From assembly GCA_013387215.1 (NCBI GenBank), contig WARW01000022.1, forward strand, positions 238,417-302,416: DNA of 64,000 bases. The letters run 5' to 3'. This stretch comes from Patescibacteria group bacterium. Lineage in GTDB: Bacteria; Patescibacteriota; Microgenomatia; UBA12405. Position numbers and translations under genes: made by a program. The first letter of the stretch is position 1. Every line of letters starts with the position of its first letter. The notes beneath the pieces are model-generated. The model was not told the origin of the DNA. It did not search any database and worked only from the letters and a program-made list of their open reading frames with translations. Positions 11,534-63,551 of the stretch are shown here, piece by piece.

Positions 11534-11978
11534 ATAGCGGAAAAGTGGCGGGTCCCCCAGAGGGGGGTAATTAATTTATTAAAACAGCACGCAGGTCTAG
11601 AAGTTACAATAGAATGTTACTCCTAAGGTTTATGATCCTTAGTTTCGCGTCAGATGGGTACTCAAGGTTGACACTGTGGTCGCAAAGACTATTCACCGAT
11701 AAGGATACACACTGGTTGACTCTATATTTGTCTTGCATATCGACAATAGGGTCAAGACAGAGACTTTCCGTTCCCACAGACCCGTTGTACACACTCAGTC
11801 CTATTTTCCAACCTCTACTGGACCAATAATTGAATACCCTGCATTCTATTGTTTCCCCCTCGTCATTCTTGTACACCACGGTTGCATCTTTGCCCCCTTC
11901 GATATTAGTGTTCATCAAGTCCATGAGGCTCTCCTTTGCTTGCAACCTGCGTGCTGTTTTTTCCGTATTTTCCGCTAT
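11534..11978. repeat. Nested inverted repeats enclosing ORF (unit A)
   Basis: ATAGCGGAAAA 11534-11544 pairs with 11968-11978. AAAACAGCACGCAGGT 11581-11596 pairs with 11945-11960. Both are perfect. Confidence 0.9.
11604..11924 (-). CDS. Hypothetical protein (unit A cargo)
   Basis: ORF with AAAGGAGAG SD upstream of ATG 11924. Confidence 0.6.
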   Translation of the reverse strand: MDLMNTNIEGGKDATVVYKNDEGETIECRVFNYWSSRGWKIGLSVYNGSVGTESLCLDPIVDMQDKYRVNQCVSLSVNSLCDHSVNLEYPSDAKLRIINLRSNILL

Positions 11979-11989
11979 TTAAAAGAACT
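11979..11989 (-). promoter_or_regulatory. boxA-like motif AGTTCTTTTAA
   Basis: Directly precedes the 5' arm. TATAAT lies further upstream near 12027-12032. Confidence 0.6.
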
Positions 11990-12118
11990 GTTTGCATATT
12001 CTAGGAATTAAAGGGCAGCTAAAGCCATTATAGAATAATGCAACTATCATTTTATGAATAATTTTTATGATGTATATTACAAACATGTAAGAATACGGTA
12101 AGATAGGGATTTAGTATC

Positions 12119-12806
12119 AACATAGCGAAAAGAGGGTCCCCAGAAGGGGTGTAATTTAACCTTAAGCACGGCACGCAGACAAAAAATCAGTTAAGTCTTT
12201 CAACCAGACAACTTCCTTCCTGAGGATAAGTAAACAAAACAGTCTTATCCTCCATGGATAAGGTGATAACATAGAAATCCACCTTGAAGTCGGATGACGG
12301 GTTGACAACTTTTTTTTGGGTCACAGTTGATTCATCAACAGCATCATAAGAGATAAGCCAGTCGTTTCCAACTGAAGTCTCAGGGAAATTGGCCAGGCCA
12401 ATCATATACTTTCCATTTTTGTCTGATTCGACTTTAGCTTTATAGCCGGGAGGCACTTTGCAAGTACCATTGGTTACAGGGGCTGGCTTAGTGACGATTC
12501 TAGTTGCTTGGATGTAATGCTGCTGAGTTGGAACCGAGGTTGGATTGGATTCATAAACCATGGCTGAAGCGGTGCGGGCTGTTTTAGGGCTTGGGTTCAT
12601 GAGCAGTAAAAATGCTGCAACAACTGCCGTGATAAATACGAAGATGGGAACCAGAAACTTAGCTTTCATTAGTCCAGAATCCTTTCTATTTATGGGTTAG
12701 ATTACTTGAATAGTCTGCGTGCCGTGCCGGAAGAGAAAACAAAAGATAAGGATTTATCCTCTATTTTCTCTTTCGGAAGGCCGCAAACTGGTCTTTTCGC
12801 TATGTT
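12119..12806. repeat. Nested inverted repeats enclosing ORF (unit B)
   Basis: AACATAGCGAAAAGA 12119-12133 pairs with 12792-12806. GCACGGCACGCAGAC 12166-12180 pairs with 12713-12727. Both are perfect 15 bp. Confidence 0.9.
12187..12669 (-). CDS. Hypothetical secreted/membrane-anchored protein (unit B cargo)
   Basis: N-terminal hydrophobic helix, AGAAAGGA SD. Confidence 0.7.
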   Translation of the reverse strand: MKAKFLVPIFVFITAVVAAFLLLMNPSPKTARTASAMVYESNPTSVPTQQHYIQATRIVTKPAPVTNGTCKVPPGYKAKVESDKNGKYMIGLANFPETSVGNDWLISYDAVDESTVTQKKVVNPSSDFKVDFYVITLSMEDKTVLFTYPQEGSCLVERLN

Positions 12807-12813
12807 AAAGAAC
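12804..12813 (-). promoter_or_regulatory. boxA-like motif GTTCTTTAAC preceded by hairpin
   Basis: Matches rrn boxA. Upstream hairpin ATTTAGG-ATTTTATGC-CCTAAAT. Confidence 0.65.
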
Positions 12814-54600: not shown

Positions 54601-54847
54601 TATTTAATAGGCGCTGGCGCATAGCAACGGTGCCAGTTTCAGTGAAGGTGAGACACAAAATGCTTTGGGGTGGAGTTTGAGTTTTGAGAAGAATATTGGC
54701 AATTCTTAAGGCAATAGTTTGGGTTTTACCAGTTCCCGCTCCAGCAATAACCATAACTGGACCTTCGATAGTGTCGACAGCCAGTTTTTGTTCGGCGTTA
54801 AGCTTCTGATATTCGGAATTAAATTTTTCTTGGCTAATTTTTTCCAC
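51641..54847 (-). CDS. UvrD/PcrA-family helicase fused to PD-(D/E)XK nuclease
   Basis: AGAGTGKT, VDEYQD, VGDDDQSI, YVALTRAK; C-terminal GKIDK..VVDFKTG..QL.FY. Confidence 0.9.
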   Translation of the reverse strand: MEKISQEKFNSEYQKLNAEQKLAVDTIEGPVMVIAGAGTGKTQTIALRIANILLKTQTPPQSILCLTFTETGTVAMRQRLLNIIGPVAYSIKIHTFHSFCNEVIKTNPESFIFAKDIDSLEELEKIEIIQNIIENLKDGSILKPWGDHFYYQRDIISCIQTLKRENIIPAKLETLINDQKKYLDLTNDVYCQIKALKASKSLESELLPIVENAKKIASKFPSIFALINYYQELYKNGFYDIGAAKSPAVNYKNALIKYFENLAKDIPKQFELLNIYTEYQAELKKRGRYDFDDMILFVLNQFKENKDLLASYQERFQYILVDEYQDTNSAQNQIIHLLGSYFENPNLFVVGDDDQSIFRFQGAAIENIYEFYLLYKAQIKLIVLKNNYRSHQLILDSSKSVIDNNKNRIANFIENLDKSLVSSKTFDPTPINLFQAKSVLEENYYVANKIKKLIESGTKPSEIAVLVRNNSDIIDLVETLTNLGIKYHLGFGENILEDVRIQQLIKLLAYVNNPSDDNVLFHILSFDFLNINSYDLLKILRFAYHEHISLSELIADKEKLLLISPKLRPSTITKISNFSVRMAKAIKWLDNYSLDTFYNKFIRKFGYLSYILSLNDFFVINHLNVFYSELKRLSLTKNYDLPQFIARINLLVENKIPLSAPELNSEYEDAINIMTTHRSKGLEFEHVFLIKCVDKKWGNNTQFSNIRLPYGILKTELLRQAIDENEDERRLFYVALTRAKNQVYISFSCKSDSGRDQIPSLFASEINPESIENVVADPNIEKLALLASMPLDPKPFITDNQLEKYLRWYLTNEYKFNVTHLNSYLRCPWCFYHKTILRIPALKNKHSALGTAVHNSLSYLFDKLKETKKLISEADLLNSFNKYLLRENLSHLEFSESLSRGQEILASYYQNYKDTFDCDCVTEYDFSHDHVHLGDIPLTGKIDKIEVLGMNSNGKPDANVVDFKTGNPDTKSKELKENGEYFRQLVFYKILADNNPNFKYNVVSGSIDFVQKSKLKNNFVKKDFKITEEQIKELETLIKDIYKKIINLEFNSLGEDCRDDQDLHALLK

Positions 54848-55026
54848 TACCCTATTTTACCAAGCGGAGCTGTATTAGCGCGAATACAATTTGATGACAG
54901 TAACGGCAATGATGACAAAGGAACAAAGCACAATAAGAAAAAATTGATTATTCTCGTCTACTTTCTTTTTATTTTTTTTGGGCATAAATAATTGTAAACA
55001 AACGATTGGTAAAAAACAATGTAAGC

Positions 55027-55075
55027 AAAAAAAATACCCGCCAAGTTGTTTTTATAAAAAAACAATTGGCAGGTT
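55027..55075 (-). terminator. Terminator of unit G
   Basis: ACC.GCCAA/TTGGC.GGT stem plus U-tract. Confidence 0.7.
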
Positions 55076-55084
55076 TGCCTCAAT

Positions 55085-55444
55085 TTATTGGATGATGCGT
55101 TCTATGGTGAATTTGGAAAAATTTGGTTCATTACCCAATAAGGGTTTATAACCTAGAGACATCAAAAGCGGCGCAGAGAGATTGATAATATACCAACGGG
55201 TTTCGGATTGAATAAGGTTGATACCATTGAAAATTTGATCAGCATCGACTTCTATAGTTTCGATTTCGCCCTTTTTTTCAAATACACGATTTTGTATTTG
55301 ACTTATTAAGGCTTTAATTATCTTTTGTGCTTTCTGACAAGTCCCCTGTTCAGTGATCAGCTTGTTGATCTGCTGTTCCCGACTTGTAATTTGGTTTTCA
55401 AAGTAAGAAACGATTTTATTGTCGGAGCTTTCATTTTGGTCCAT
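55085..55444 (-). CDS. Hypothetical protein (unit G)
   Basis: GAAAGGTGG SD before ATG 55444. Confidence 0.65.
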   Translation of the reverse strand: MDQNESSDNKIVSYFENQITSREQQINKLITEQGTCQKAQKIIKALISQIQNRVFEKKGEIETIEVDADQIFNGINLIQSETRWYIINLSAPLLMSLGYKPLLGNEPNFSKFTIERIIQ

Positions 55445-55467
55445 AAAAACCACCTTTCACATTTTAT

Positions 55468-55521
55468 TAAATTGAGATTTAAGGTACAGCGGGATTTTAC
55501 CTTATTTTAGGAAAATGTCAA
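55468..55521 (-). promoter_or_regulatory. Promoter + boxA-like GTACCTTAAA + 5' arm (unit G)
   Basis: TTGACA 55516-55521, TAAAAT 55494-55499, motif 55478-55487. Arm 55468-55476 pairs with 55079-55087. Confidence 0.7.
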
Positions 55522-55525
55522 AAAT

Positions 55526-56257
55526 TTAATAAATTAATTTGATGTGCGTAGGTAATATTTTGGAAAGGCGATCGATTTCTGTTTGGCTTATTGAAGAACT
55601 TCTAACGTCGAGTTCCTCTAGTGCAGCCATGTTTTTAATTCCATCGGGCAGAACCGCAATTTGAGTTCCTAAAATTGATAATTTTTTAAGTTTTTTTAGT
55701 TTTAGAATGCTTTGAGGAAAATCGGTTAAAGGATTAAAAGACAAATCTAGTTCTTCAAGATTTTGCAAATCTCCAAGTGAATCAGCAACAGTGCTAATTC
55801 GATTTGAACTTAAGGACAAATACTTGAGATTATCTAAACTGCCAAGCGGAGCTGGGATGGAAGTTAAGGAACCGTCAATATTGTGAAGATACTCAAGTTT
55901 TTTCAAACTAGAAATCTGGGGAGGGATTGTATGAATTGAAATGCGGCAAAGCTCTAAATATTTCAAATTAGTATACTGAGAAATTTCTTTTAATAAAAGA
56001 AAATCATCGCCTTGAAAAGCATAATGACCGGTACATAAATCTATTTTTATTACTTTAGCCGGATCTTTTAGAGCTTCTTCGCGATTCGAATCAGGGGTCG
56101 CGTCAACAATTTCCTGAATCGTTTTGACTGAATTAGAAACTGGTTTTTTAGGACTGACAATAATCGGTGTTGAGGAGTTAATAAAATAAATTGCAAAAAA
56201 CATAAAAACACAAAAGCCAGATAAAAGTAAAATAAATCCGTTTTTATGGTTTCGCAT
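55526..56257 (-). CDS. Membrane-anchored leucine-rich repeat protein
   Basis: N-terminal TM, repeated LxxLxLSxNxL..P. Confidence 0.88.
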   Translation of the reverse strand: MRNHKNGFILLLSGFCVFMFFAIYFINSSTPIIVSPKKPVSNSVKTIQEIVDATPDSNREEALKDPAKVIKIDLCTGHYAFQGDDFLLLKEISQYTNLKYLELCRISIHTIPPQISSLKKLEYLHNIDGSLTSIPAPLGSLDNLKYLSLSSNRISTVADSLGDLQNLEELDLSFNPLTDFPQSILKLKKLKKLSILGTQIAVLPDGIKNMAALEELDVRSSSISQTEIDRLSKILPTHIKLIY

Positions 56258-56357
56258 AAATTAATTATGCAATAAATTTAAAATAAAAACACTTTTTGAT
56301 AAAAAAACCCGCTAAAAGCAAAATGTTTAGCGGGTTTGGCCCAGATCCATATAGTTT

Positions 56358-56675
56358 TTAGTAATTACTTATAGTAATAACTTTTTCTTCAAACATTTTA
56401 TGGGGTGTCTGGTAGGGTAAAGAAAGTTGATAATACTTTTTTAAATAATCCTTAATAATAGGAACCACCAGATCATGAAAATTGTCTATTGTCATGTCAC
56501 TTTTAATAAACTGAGAAATTTTAATTTCAACTTTTTTCTTTTCTTCTGTTTTAAAGTTTTCCAGAATAGTTGGAATTATTTCTTTGGCTATGCCAATGAC
56601 ATAGACTTCTCTTTGATGGTCGTTTAAATGAAGGTTAAGGTTATCAAAATAAGTATCCGAATTAGATTTTTCCAA
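56358..56675 (-). CDS. Hypothetical protein (unit H)
   Basis: TTG start with AAAGGAGG SD, terminator 56301-56337. Confidence 0.65.
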   Translation of the reverse strand: MEKSNSDTYFDNLNLHLNDHQREVYVIGIAKEIIPTILENFKTEEKKKVEIKISQFIKSDMTIDNFHDLVVPIIKDYLKKYYQLSLPYQTPHKMFEEKVITISNY

Positions 56676-56701
56676 GATACTCGCCTCCTTTCTTTTGTTT
56701 A

Positions 56702-56772
56702 GTTTAATGTGCCTTATTTAAGCGCTTTTGCTTAAAGTATGGGGATTTTACAGGAATATTTTAGAAAGTCAA
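56702..56772 (-). promoter_or_regulatory. Promoter + hairpin + boxA-like GCACATTAAAC (unit H)
   Basis: TTGACT 56767-56772, TAAAAT 56745-56750, hairpin 56717-56736. Confidence 0.65.
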
Positions 56773-56819
56773 AAAAAACCCGCTAAATTTTTTATTTTTA
56801 GCGAGTAAGGACTCAAAAA

Positions 56820-57179
56820 CTAAGATTGGGGTAGATTAAAATTTATGTAACCATTATAGAATTCGGTTTTTACTTCGATACCAAATTTTGGTTTTAAGAT
56901 TTCTTCGAATTTCAATTTCAAACTTTTTACCGATTCTTGGTCGTAATGGACGTGGGCTATTTTAAAAGCCTCCATCAAATCGACTCGAACTCTTTTGGAA
57001 CCTTTTTTGATTTGTTTCTTGTGAACCAAATCTTCAATGAATGTCGTTAAAAGCCAAATTTGAGAAAGAGACTTATCGGTTTTGCCGTTTTTTTCGCATT
57101 CATCAAGGATTTGTTTTTTTACTTGAGTAATTACGAGTTTGAATTCATTGGGATGAGACAACTTTATTATATTGTCCAT
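56820..57179 (-). CDS. Hypothetical protein (unit I), paralog of unit J cargo
   Basis: GAAAGGTGA SD; IW.....IE......V.VDL..AF shared with J. Confidence 0.7.
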   Translation of the reverse strand: MDNIIKLSHPNEFKLVITQVKKQILDECEKNGKTDKSLSQIWLLTTFIEDLVHKKQIKKGSKRVRVDLMEAFKIAHVHYDQESVKSLKLKFEEILKPKFGIEVKTEFYNGYINFNLPQS

Positions 57180-57213
57180 ATATATCACCTTTCTTTCTTC
57201 TACCTTTATATAT

Positions 57214-57290
57214 TAGTTGTTGAGTTAAAGAGCAATTTTTTGGCGCATTTGCCAGGTGCGTTATTTTAGCCTATTTTTTGGTAATGTCAA
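57214..57290 (-). promoter_or_regulatory. Promoter + boxB-like hairpin + boxA TGCTCTTTAAC + 5' arm (unit I)
   Basis: TTGACA 57285-57290, TAAAAT 57263-57268, hairpin 57241-57254, boxA 57224-57234. Confidence 0.8.
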
Positions 57291-57342
57291 AAAAATACCC
57301 CCAAAAGATTTTTATACTTTTAGAGGTCAAGATCTCAACGCG

Positions 57343-57717
57343 TTAAATAAAAGTAAATTCAAGAATTTTTTTGGGATAATTGATGGTGATTAACATGTCA
57401 TATTTTTGGCAAAGCATGGCTTCAATTTTGTCTTTACATTTTATAGCTAGGGTTGTACTGTAAATTATTCCGGATAGTTCAAAAGCTTTTGCAAGATCGA
57501 CTTGGACAAAATATTGATGTCTAAATAATTTTTTGTGTCTTAACTGAAATTCAATACCATTTATTATCATCCAAATCTTTTCCAATTCTTGAATCGATTC
57601 AACTGATTCTTTTGAGTCGTTTTTCTTTTGTTGATATTCCTTTTGTATATCTGTACAAATATTTAAAAATATTTGTTTCAACTCGACGGCTGAAAATATT
57701 TTTTCAAGTTGTTCCAT
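57343..57717 (-). CDS. Hypothetical protein (unit J)
   Basis: AGTAGGTG SD-like, similar to unit I cargo. Confidence 0.7.
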   Translation of the reverse strand: MEQLEKIFSAVELKQIFLNICTDIQKEYQQKKNDSKESVESIQELEKIWMIINGIEFQLRHKKLFRHQYFVQVDLAKAFELSGIIYSTTLAIKCKDKIEAMLCQKYDMLITINYPKKILEFTFI

Positions 57718-57739
57718 AAAACACCTACTTTCTTTTTGG

Positions 57740-57812
57740 GCGTTGAGTTAAAGAGCGATTTGGCGCGTTTACCAAAGTTGAATGATTTTACATTAGTTCT
57801 GGCCAAAGTCAA
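57740..57812 (-). promoter_or_regulatory. Promoter + boxB-like hairpin + boxA GCTCTTTAAC + 5' arm (unit J)
   Basis: TTGACT 57807-57812, TAAAAT 57785-57790, hairpin 57759-57776, boxA 57747-57756. Confidence 0.8.
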
Positions 57813-57869
57813 AAAAATACCCGTCAAAGATTTTATGACGGGTTAGACCCAAAAAAATTAGAGAAAAAA

Positions 57870-58217
57870 TTAGGTTAACCTAATTCGTATAGTATCTTTT
57901 TCTTTATCAATCGTAATCCAATTACATTTTTCAGTTAAAGTTTCGTCTATCGATGGATAACTTGGACCAGATGCCCGCCTGATCCGACGACAGATATTTT
58001 CCCAGTGAGGTATTTCTACTTCATTCTCACTAATTCTTCTTTTATTAATACGGTTGTCTGACAAGACAGGGATTATAAATCCTAAAAAGAACGCGGCCCA
58101 ACCAGCACTGCAGCATTCTAACTTTAATCTTTCTAAAATAACGGCTTTTTCTTGTCTCTCTTTTTCTAGGGCATCTTTTGAATTTTCAACTTTAGCAGAA
58201 AACAAATCATTAGTCAT
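57870..58217 (-). CDS. Hypothetical protein (unit K)
   Basis: GGGAGGTG SD before ATG 58217. Confidence 0.65.
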   Translation of the reverse strand: MTNDLFSAKVENSKDALEKERQEKAVILERLKLECCSAGWAAFFLGFIIPVLSDNRINKRRISENEVEIPHWENICRRIRRASGPSYPSIDETLTEKCNWITIDKEKDTIRIRLT

Positions 58218-58232
58218 ATTCACACCTCCCAA

Positions 58233-58309
58233 TTCTCTAATTTTAAAAATGTGCAATTTTGGAGCTATTTCCAATTTAGTGATTTTAGCCTAAAATCGGG
58301 AAAAGTCAA
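58233..58309 (-). promoter_or_regulatory. Promoter + hairpin + boxA-like + 5' arm (unit K)
   Basis: TTGACT 58304-58309, TAAAAT 58282-58287, hairpin 58259-58274, TGCACATTTTTAA. Arm 58233-58244 pairs with 57854-57865. Confidence 0.7.
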
Positions 58310-58314
58310 AAGAA

Positions 58315-58770
58315 CTAAAGACTCAGTTCAAAAAATATACTACTGTCTCCATCAATTCGATCGTTTTTAATTTCTTTAGTTTGGATAAAATTTAGTGAAT
58401 TAAAAATTTTTCGTGATCCTAAATTATTGCCCCAAGTTCTAGTTTCTATTGTTTTATAATTATTTAGTTTTGCCCAAGTAATTACAAACTCAACCTGCTT
58501 TTGGCCGTAACCTTTACCTCTGTAATTTTTTAATATAAACATAGGACCGATATCCAGGAAATTGTTTTCAGGATCTAATATTAATGAAATATACCCGATG
58601 ATTTGATTATTAATTTGTGTAGAAAAAAGTTTTAAGATTTTTTTTGCTTCAAATTTTTGACAAAACTTATATGCATCAAAAAAACCATCTTTACGTGTAG
58701 GAAGAAAAAACGAACTAGATGCAACAATCAAATCCTTTATTGAATCTATTTTAATTTCTTCAATTTCCAT
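58315..58770 (-). CDS. GNAT family N-acetyltransferase
   Basis: YRGKGYG motif A, N..S...F..L.F. Confidence 0.85.
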   Translation of the reverse strand: MEIEEIKIDSIKDLIVASSSFFLPTRKDGFFDAYKFCQKFEAKKILKLFSTQINNQIIGYISLILDPENNFLDIGPMFILKNYRGKGYGQKQVEFVITWAKLNNYKTIETRTWGNNLGSRKIFNSLNFIQTKEIKNDRIDGDSSIFFELSL

Positions 58771-62072: not shown

Positions 62073-62161
62073 TATAATGAATACTAGTCTTATTAAAATG
62101 AGTGCTTAAAAAGCTTGAGCATTAGGTTTAATAGTACCTTAAAAAATTTAATTTTATCTGA
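62073..62161 (+). promoter_or_regulatory. -10 + hairpin + boxA-like GTACCTTAAA + 5' arm (unit L)
   Basis: TATAAT 62073-62078, hairpin 62103-62121, motif 62134-62143. Arm 62145-62161 pairs with 62758-62775. Confidence 0.65.
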
Positions 62162-62181
62162 TAAGAAAGGAATATCAGGTT

Positions 62182-62772
62182 ATGGGGAGAGGCACTAAAT
62201 ATCTTATTTTGATGGTGGTGATAGCTTTACTATTCTCACCAATCAAAGTTCTAGCAGAAAATAAAAAAGGAGGTGAAAGCAAAACATTAGTTGAATACTT
62301 GGAATTGAAAACCCCCAATGATTGTGGAAAATTAAATGCCAAAAGATCGGCCGAATTAGTTAATGGTATTGAAATTAATCCTGGCGACACTTTTTCATTT
62401 AATCAAATTGTTGGACAAATCAGCAAAAAACGTGGATTTAGGTGTGGTTTTATAACAATTATTCAAGGAGGAAAGAAAAAAACCTATTATGATGATGGGT
62501 CCAGTATTTGGAGAACGAGCACGGCGATATATCAAGCTGCTTTAGATTTGGGATTGGAAATTACCGAAAGGCATAAAACCTATAAACCTTGTGCATATGC
62601 CAAAATATGCGACAGTGCAGTTGCTGTTTGGGGAGAAGGGCCAGATTCGGATACCTACTTAGACATGAAAATCAAAAATAACAAAGACAAACAAATAAAG
62701 TTTGAAACCTCAGTGGATGATAATGCTCAAATAATAGTAAAGATATTCGAAACTGAATCAGAAAAAAATTGA
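62182..62772 (+). CDS. VanW-like domain secreted protein (divergent)
   Basis: Signal peptide, NG..I.PG.TFSFN..VG....RGF, STA.YQA....GLEI.ERH. Confidence 0.8.
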   Translation: MGRGTKYLILMVVIALLFSPIKVLAENKKGGESKTLVEYLELKTPNDCGKLNAKRSAELVNGIEINPGDTFSFNQIVGQISKKRGFRCGFITIIQGGKKKTYYDDGSSIWRTSTAIYQAALDLGLEITERHKTYKPCAYAKICDSAVAVWGEGPDSDTYLDMKIKNNKDKQIKFETSVDDNAQIIVKIFETESEKN

Positions 62773-62963: not shown

Positions 62964-63551
62964 ATGAAAAAACCTTTGGTTCTGCTGATTATTTTTACAT
63001 TCAGTCTGATTTTTAGTTTTTCAGTGGTTTTGGCTGAAGACAAGAAATATACGAACGAACTTGTTTTTACCCATACCCTGCAATTATCAAAAAGCATTAA
63101 TAATGTTAATGCCGCAAAAGCTGCAGAATATGTAAATGGTTATATATTGGAACCAGGTGCAATCTTTTCCTATAATTTGGTTGTTGGAAAAAGAACTTGG
63201 GCAAGAGGCTTTAGATATGGATATATGCCGATTACCGATAAAAAGGGCCACATAATAAAAGAGATTAAAGTTGTTGGTTCAGGAGTATGTCGATTTTCTA
63301 CTGCCATGTTTCAAGCTGCGAGAGCATTTGATTTAGAAATCATTGAAAATCATTCTCATAGTTTTGGAGTTGATTATGCCAAGAAGGGCGATGATGCCAC
63401 AGTTAATTGGGGAAATGGCCCAGGGTCAAAAGGATGGCTGGATAATGTTTTTAAAAACACCAAAGATTATTCAATTCTGATCAAATGTTCAGTTAACAAA
63501 AAAAATCTTGTAACAGTTCAGTTCTACAAGATAAATGAATCAGAAAAATAA
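62964..63551 (+). CDS. VanW-like domain secreted protein
   Basis: PG..FSYN..VG, GSGVCRFSTAMFQA, HSHS..V.Y...G.DATV.WG; AAAGGGGAG SD. Confidence 0.85.
   Translation: MKKPLVLLIIFTFSLIFSFSVVLAEDKKYTNELVFTHTLQLSKSINNVNAAKAAEYVNGYILEPGAIFSYNLVVGKRTWARGFRYGYMPITDKKGHIIKEIKVVGSGVCRFSTAMFQAARAFDLEIIENHSHSFGVDYAKKGDDATVNWGNGPGSKGWLDNVFKNTKDYSILIKCSVNKKNLVTVQFYKINESEK

Follow-up and report, generated by a model that had tools for sequence, protein, structure and literature searches.

Architecture of the array

In a 64,000-nucleotide stretch of the 1.3-Mb genome (G000; C15:238417-302416) of an ultra-small bacterium, probably one of the Candidatus Shapirobacteria, to which a protein of a same-genus genome is assigned, hereafter called the window, five single-gene modules (K, J, I, H and G) form a chromosomal array on the minus strand. 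The array is flanked by gatB and a GNAT gene on one side and by a small membrane gene and uvrD on the other. Each module encloses one open reading frame (ORF) in a wrapper made of a promoter, a boxA-like motif and a terminator, and in four modules a 5' arm after the motif is complementary to a counter-arm at the stop codon. The wrapper mirrors the stand-alone 16S transcription unit of this lineage, and it is a genome-wide class, which was the main point overlooked by an initial annotation of this DNA. Judged from the sequence, the interest of the array lies more in the wrapper than in the cargo, with arm statistics that are strong in this genome and patchy in its relatives. The features are as follows (window coordinates; SD, Shine-Dalgarno sequence).

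58282..58309 (-): K promoter, sigma70-type, directly after the GNAT gene
58259..58274 (-): K leader hairpin in boxB-like position, -4.1 kcal/mol
58243..58254 (-): K boxA-like motif, five-T variant
58233..58244 (-): K 5' arm, perfect 12-bp complement of 57854-57865 (z -3.2, 0/60 controls)
57870..58217 (-): ORF K, 115 aa, orphan
57854..57865 (-): K counter-arm
57810..57843 (-): K terminator, U-run overlapping the J -35 element
57785..57812 (-): J promoter
57759..57776 (-): J leader hairpin
57740..57756 (-): J boxA (57748-57756) and 5' arm (57740-57747)
57343..57717 (-): ORF J, 124 aa, paralogue of I
57334..57341 (-): J counter-arm, 8 bp
57288..57327 (-): J terminator, U-run overlapping the I -35 element
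57263..57290 (-): I promoter
57241..57254 (-): I leader hairpin
57213..57233 (-): I boxA (57225-57233) and 5' arm (57213-57225; arm p 0.02)
56820..57179 (-): ORF I, 119 aa, paralogue of J
56811..56823 (-): I counter-arm, 12/13 bp, overlapping the stop codon
56770..56806 (-): I terminator, U-run overlapping the H -35 element
56745..56772 (-): H promoter
56715..56736 (-): H leader hairpin
56704..56712 (-): H boxA-like motif; identical variant in the 16S leader of locus L199
56358..56675 (-): ORF H, 105 aa, TTG start, no relative found
56300..56336 (-): H terminator
55526..56257 (-): leucine-rich-repeat gene, N-terminus hydrophobic, unwrapped and not separated from G by a terminator
55494..55521 (-): G promoter, near in sequence to the module promoters at the same site in relatives G009, G043 and G006
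55468..55487 (-): G boxA-like motif (55479-55487; variant also in the 16S leader of locus L196) and 5' arm (55468-55476; arm p 0.03)
55085..55444 (-): ORF G, 119 aa, weak likeness to module proteins of relatives
55079..55087 (-): G counter-arm, overlapping the stop codon
55027..55074 (-): G terminator

The layout described in the initial annotation was borne out in part. The five minus-strand promoters TTGAC(A/T)-16-TAAAAT were found at 58309, 57812, 57290, 56772 and 55521, and they agree with the consensus at 10-11 of 12 positions. This exact pattern occurs 10 times in the 1.3-Mb genome, five of them inside the array, and in 300 shuffles of the sequence it appeared 0.007 times on average, with a maximum of 1. 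Weak leader hairpins (-4 to -7 kcal/mol) precede the motif in K, J, I and H, and none was found before the motif in the G leader, both as annotated. All five leaders carry the boxA-like motif, 25-45 nt from the start codon, and an SD precedes each of the five ORFs, whose lengths of 105 to 124 aa agree with the claimed range of 105-125 aa. Every module ends in a terminator composed of a hairpin and a U-run (-10.7 to -20.6 kcal/mol), and at the K-J, J-I and I-H joints the U-run provides the T of the downstream -35 element, so that the reported run of each U-tract into the next TTGAC was seen. The leaders of the five modules can be aligned with a mean column identity of 60%, and their terminators with 59%. 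The interruption of the array by the leucine-rich-repeat gene was also confirmed. In addition, a second boxA-like motif at 58307-58316 (-) overlaps the -35 element of module K; in G009, the second module uses a sequence like this one as both its motif and its arm.

Complementary ends of the modules

In modules K, J, I and G, the strand just after the boxA-like motif pairs with the strand at or just past the stop codon, by 12 perfect base pairs in K, 8 bp in J, 12/13 in I and 9-10 bp in G. The arm sequences differ from module to module, and the end-to-end helix is retained in the whole-transcript folds of J, I and G. The arm and counter-arm that had been assigned to every module thus exist in four of them and not in H, where the folded leader is paired elsewhere.

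Genome-wide occurrence of the wrapper

When the genome was scanned for the promoter plus boxA, the same layout was detected elsewhere, with arms of up to 15 bp, and some of the wrapped units have two nested arms of 14-15 bp. For a test of the class we used 440 stand-alone genes, with starts taken from a simple in-house gene caller, of which 76 carry a degenerate form of the motif. K is missing from this 76-gene set because the motif pattern permitted at most four T. For each gene, the 25 nt after the motif were matched with its own trailer and compared with swapped trailers. A cognate arm at p<=0.05 was found in 26 of the 76 motif genes and in 6 of 150 genes sampled from the 364 motif-less ones (Fisher 3e-9). 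The excess persisted when the trailers were swapped within the motif set alone, both with all genes (22/76) and with the array genes left out (21/72), while the 25 nt upstream of the motif, used as a negative control, gave 2/76. A motif-blind search of the 440 genes gave a similar picture, in which 12 of the 34 best 5'-3' helices begin at the motif, against a background of 2.7%. The helices of the class are 9-21 bp long with a median of 13, and they reach the SD zone in 6 of the 26 arm-bearing genes and leave it free in the other 20.

The genes that bear arms are mostly accessory. At p<=0.07, the 1.3 Mb read from G010 and G043 contained a homologue for 5 of 29, compared with 157 of the 364 motif-less genes, and an SD is present in 93% of the arm-bearing genes and in 35% of the motif-less ones. 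Outside the array the cargo includes secreted and enzyme-like proteins, and the motif genes are not AT-richer than average (GC 35.5% vs 34.4%). The layout is not special to the array, since the wrapper recurs across the genome and surrounds unrelated genes as well.

Resemblance to the ribosomal RNA unit

The 16S gene of G000 stands alone and shows the order promoter, hairpin, motif, arm, 16S, counter-arm and terminator; in the 23S leader, too, the motif is placed ahead of its arm. Among 30 16S loci of the family, the degenerate motif lies 77-139 nt upstream of 16S in 27, and the leader arm begins within 4 nt of a motif in 19. The motif variants of G, H, I and J were all found among these 16S leaders, and that of I and J equals the boxA of the E. 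coli rrn operons. No 23S start was present in the downstream DNA of the 30 loci (up to 1.5 kb, shorter in 7); as far as this DNA reaches, 16S is unlinked from 23S in L001 and L172-L200.

From its position and its likeness to the E. coli element, the motif is likely to be a NusB-binding boxA. The genome encodes nusB, nusA, rho and rnc, and nusB immediately precedes rnc, which codes for RNase III (C19:6753-7453). The array itself had no Rfam match at the gathering score. The order of promoter, boxA, 5' strand, gene, 3' strand and terminator is the same as in an rrn unit, which has boxB-boxA-boxC, a Nus antitermination complex and a leader-trailer helix (PMC10250234, PMC8632103); the weak hairpins of K, J, I and H stand where boxB would be, and the motif variants of G, H, I and J are identical to those of the family's 16S leaders. 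The array differs from such a unit in enclosing SD-led ORFs, in its helices of 8-13 bp, which are shorter than rRNA helices, and in a genome where PF00459 did not detect SuhB. The modules would work like an rrn unit but are not one, because they enclose ORFs and not ribosomal RNA.

Modules in related genomes

The interval between gatB and uvrD is variable among relatives. In the 1.5 kb preceding uvrD, modules were found in 6 of 29 relatives, with two each in G009 and G043 and one each in G006, G010, G015 and G042; 4 of the 29 upstream loci were short. The homologous modules of G043, G009 and G006 have arms of 14-16 bp that covary, with changes on both strands (by eye, in three sequences), and their promoters resemble the G promoter. 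The second ORF of G009, which is not preceded by a terminator hairpin, carries a motif and a 16-bp arm of its own.

In G010, of which 880 kb were read, arms were present in 5 of 21 motif genes and in 10 of 150 others (p 0.023). Among loci of the genus picked by promoter plus motif, 4 of the 8 with an ORF have arms, two of them homologous, and 3 more have no ORF call. In the set picked in the same way across the order, 8 of 19 reached p<=0.13; loci without an ORF numbered 6. A strict form of the pattern was found in 22 of 132 genomes, mostly of the same genus. The class is richest in G000, the largest genome of the genus examined.

Proteins encoded in the array

The initial annotation described the cargo as one family of diverged, effector-like paralogues. 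For I and J the alignment holds (z 9.2, 0/200 shuffles), and on sequence these two are firm paralogues. The similarity of G to I and J was not significant (hhalign E 0.32), and no homology of K or H to the other module proteins was detected in any pairwise or profile test, so that a single family is seen only for I and J, with G as a weak candidate. A profile of J, I and G009a searched against 1.84 billion proteins gave three new relatives, P0004, P0005 and P0006, of which P0004 is 48% to J; P0004 and P0006 each lie on a contig of 6489 nt, perhaps one and the same. One further hit of this profile was set aside as a repeat protein. Comparisons of J with G009a (z 4.8) and of G with G009b (z 4.3) were suggestive. 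When a profile built from relatives only was run among 2675 background proteins, G came second, at E 0.16, J came fifth, at E 0.21, and neither H nor K obtained a score.

Structure models were made for J and I. The J model, which is confident (predicted local distance difference test, pLDDT, 92; predicted template-modelling score, pTM, 0.85), has the predicted fold helix-helix-strand-helix-helix-strand-strand, and the element order of the I model (pLDDT 66) agrees with it. This order resembles that of a winged helix to which one more helix has been added at the N-terminus. The weak rows of a Foldseek search lean towards winged helices, and no match reached E 0.001. None of the five proteins matched Pfam, PHROG or PADLOC at threshold, or any toxin family. 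With no such match and no fold match, the label of an effector-like family was not supported.

Proposed mechanism and alternatives

Since each module combines a promoter and a terminator with an rRNA-type signal, and four of them have complementary ends, as do about two dozen other accessory genes of G000, these messenger RNAs (mRNAs) are likely made and sealed as ribosomal RNA is. We consider it on balance probable that boxA loads NusB-S10 and the Nus factors, which anneal the 5' arm to the strand behind the stop codon and yield a sealed monocistronic mRNA. In such a mechanism, the boxA-like motif would recruit NusB-S10 and the Nus complex, the modified polymerase would hold the 5' arm at its RNA exit channel while the complex shields the transcript from Rho, and the arm would anneal to the strand emerging past the stop codon. 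The product would be an end-paired mRNA that is probably more stable. There is precedent for parts of this: rrn complexes are described as fixing the 5' element and aiding long-range pairing (PMC8632103), and the hbs mRNA of Bacillus subtilis as shielded by a 14-bp helix between its 5' and 3' untranslated regions (UTRs) (PMC5737220). The wrapper would then be a general device of G000 for accessory, SD-led genes.

Several observations weigh against this reading. No significant arm was found in 50 of the 76 motif genes, H has no counter-arm at its stop codon (swapped-trailer test, p 0.495), the J arm on its own is borderline (p 0.069, swapped trailers), and in the whole-transcript fold of K a local hairpin, in which the motif pairs with the SD, beats the arm pair. 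The motif was derived partly from the array modules, and therefore the check on the rRNA leaders matters; the gene caller rewards an SD, in both gene sets. PF00459 did not detect the SuhB family, which belongs to the core of the E. coli complex, in the genome. Replication beyond the source genome is uneven: in the 448 kb of G043 that were read, arms were found in 0 of 8 motif genes compared with 6 of 104 others, and only 2 of 19 in the order-wide set reached p<=0.05. Finally, a boxA near the start codon represses translation in E. coli (PMC5725501).

In one alternative explanation the wrapper limits expression, either with Nus loading at boxA blocking ribosomes, as at suhB, or with end-pairing shutting the mRNA, so that possibly harmful proteins are made in a brief pulse. 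The distance of 25-45 nt between motif and start codon in all five modules is within the suhB-type range (as given in PMC5725501), the K motif can itself pair with the SD, and six class helices touch the SD zone. Still, we regard it as unlikely, since 20 of the 26 helices leave the SD zone free, the promoters are near consensus, the cargo elsewhere includes secreted and enzyme-like proteins, and none of the five array proteins matches a toxin family. The helix might instead be a processing stalk for RNase III as in pre-rRNA, from which the message is excised and possibly circularised, setting its lifetime or separating neighbours. The adjacency of nusB and rnc, the nested 14-15 bp arm pairs of some units and the consecutive wrapped ORFs of G009, which are separated by another boxA-like motif and not by a terminator hairpin, as in a 16S-23S operon, are consistent with such processing. 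It is nevertheless decidedly unlikely: the helices fall short of the >17 bp that E. coli 16S needs (PMC10250234), and cuts inside arms this short would destroy the protection. Because the helices (8-13 bp here, class median 13) are shorter than rRNA stalks, end protection would seem more likely than RNase III cutting.

A simpler possibility is that boxA is merely an anti-Rho signal for AT-rich accessory genes and that the arm matches are incidental. The two thirds of motif genes without a significant arm and the weak replication in G043 and across the order would suit it, as would the presence of rho and the silencing of acquired AT-rich DNA by Rho in E. coli (PMC12360218). We find it highly improbable in view of the excess of arms over swapped controls, their placement directly after the motif with a negative upstream control, the homologous arms changed on both strands, and the ordinary GC content of the motif genes. 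The idea that arms and joints act in DNA, as the sites at which an integron-like array of cassettes recombines, is largely refuted and has hardly any probability left. Its head-to-tail single-gene units and variable copy number do recall integrons, but a simple pattern test found no attC-like core-site pair after any of the five stops, no integron integrase scored above the cut-off (best 86 bits vs 265), each unit has its own promoter, and the arms differ between modules and occupy the positions of rRNA arms.

Other known systems share single parts of the wrapper. The E. coli suhB gene and a ParE-like gene of C. koseri also have boxA less than 50 nt from the start codon, but they are single regulated genes for which the available part of the source mentions no 3' partner strand (PMC5725501); the class in G000 has a 5'-3' helix after boxA and is dispersed over accessory genes. 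The hbs mRNA shares a helix of ~14 bp joining both UTRs of one mRNA and differs in being one gene and not a repeated cassette, with no boxA mentioned in the text available (PMC5737220). PeSL cassettes of T4-type phages likewise have repeated joints of a terminator and a strong sigma70 promoter, orphan genes and a variable region (PMC2839356). Such joints are repeated three times between the orphan genes of the array, which differs from PeSL in its chromosomal place between gatB and uvrD, not in a T4-type phage, and in its boxA and arms; recombination between the joints is here proposed. In a search that was mostly open-access and excluded supplements (e.g. the boxA gene tables of PMC5725501), we found no paper on boxA with a 5'-3' helix around protein genes.

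With regard to its origin, the array is probably the result of whole wrapped units having been duplicated in tandem at the variable gatB-uvrD site, and this is supported by the alignment of leaders and terminators across the five modules. The amplification of whole units proposed in the initial annotation agrees with this alignment, with the I-J paralogy and with the varying copy number in the genus. Duplication would probably have proceeded via recombination between the similar terminator-promoter joints. I and J are diverged duplication products, and K and H have either diverged past recognition or are different cargo in a copied wrapper.

The Nus/boxA complex has so far been known as an rRNA machine with few regulatory side jobs. 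If sealing of the ends by Nus factors is true, the RNA-chaperone role of Nus extends to protein genes, which suggests a way for a reduced bacterium to express its new orphan genes in spite of Rho, and provides a sequence rule for real orphan genes and transcript ends in uncultured bacteria. We tentatively raise the wider possibility of a second class of bacterial mRNA units, in which accessory genes sit in a portable rRNA-type frame. The Nus complex would bring the 5' end to the stop codon and close the message into a loop, perhaps with processing or circularisation, and the frame would be duplicated and filled with new cargo as one unit; it would cover dozens of genes here.

Further wrapped units and neighbouring features

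Other units of this kind were noticed in the window and elsewhere in the genome. At 11604-12813 (-) two wrapped genes have perfect arms of 12-15 bp, one of them with two nested arm pairs. Tandem VanW-domain genes at 62134-62772 (+) and 62964-63551 (+) have boxA-like motifs, and in the first an 18-nt near-palindrome stands both after the motif and at the stop, as an arm pair or a direct repeat. A second tandem array lies in the fusA-tuf interval (C15:226400-228400, -), with three single-gene units that have near-identical leaders and terminators; its first two proteins are paralogues (E 1e-4). Single-gene units that are wrapped or repeated, some of them paralogous, form further clusters at C11:22900-25700, C11:51300-55800 and C12:23250-24500.

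A promoter and boxA-like motif also precede an RNA that has no ORF and forms a long hairpin of ~60-80 nt, at C11:17127-17263 in G000 and in loci L203, L204, L209, L214 and L225. Two copies of it stand in tandem, G043 and G000 share 56-57 identical nt, and in the four loci scanned it had no Rfam match at the gathering score. Lastly, a -10-like hexamer stands 6 nt ahead of the start codon both in uvrD (at 54847-54859, -) and in the leucine-rich-repeat gene (at 56257-56269, -), an arrangement resembling that of leaderless genes, which was seen in 53 of the 364 motif-less stand-alone genes and in 1 of the 76 motif genes.

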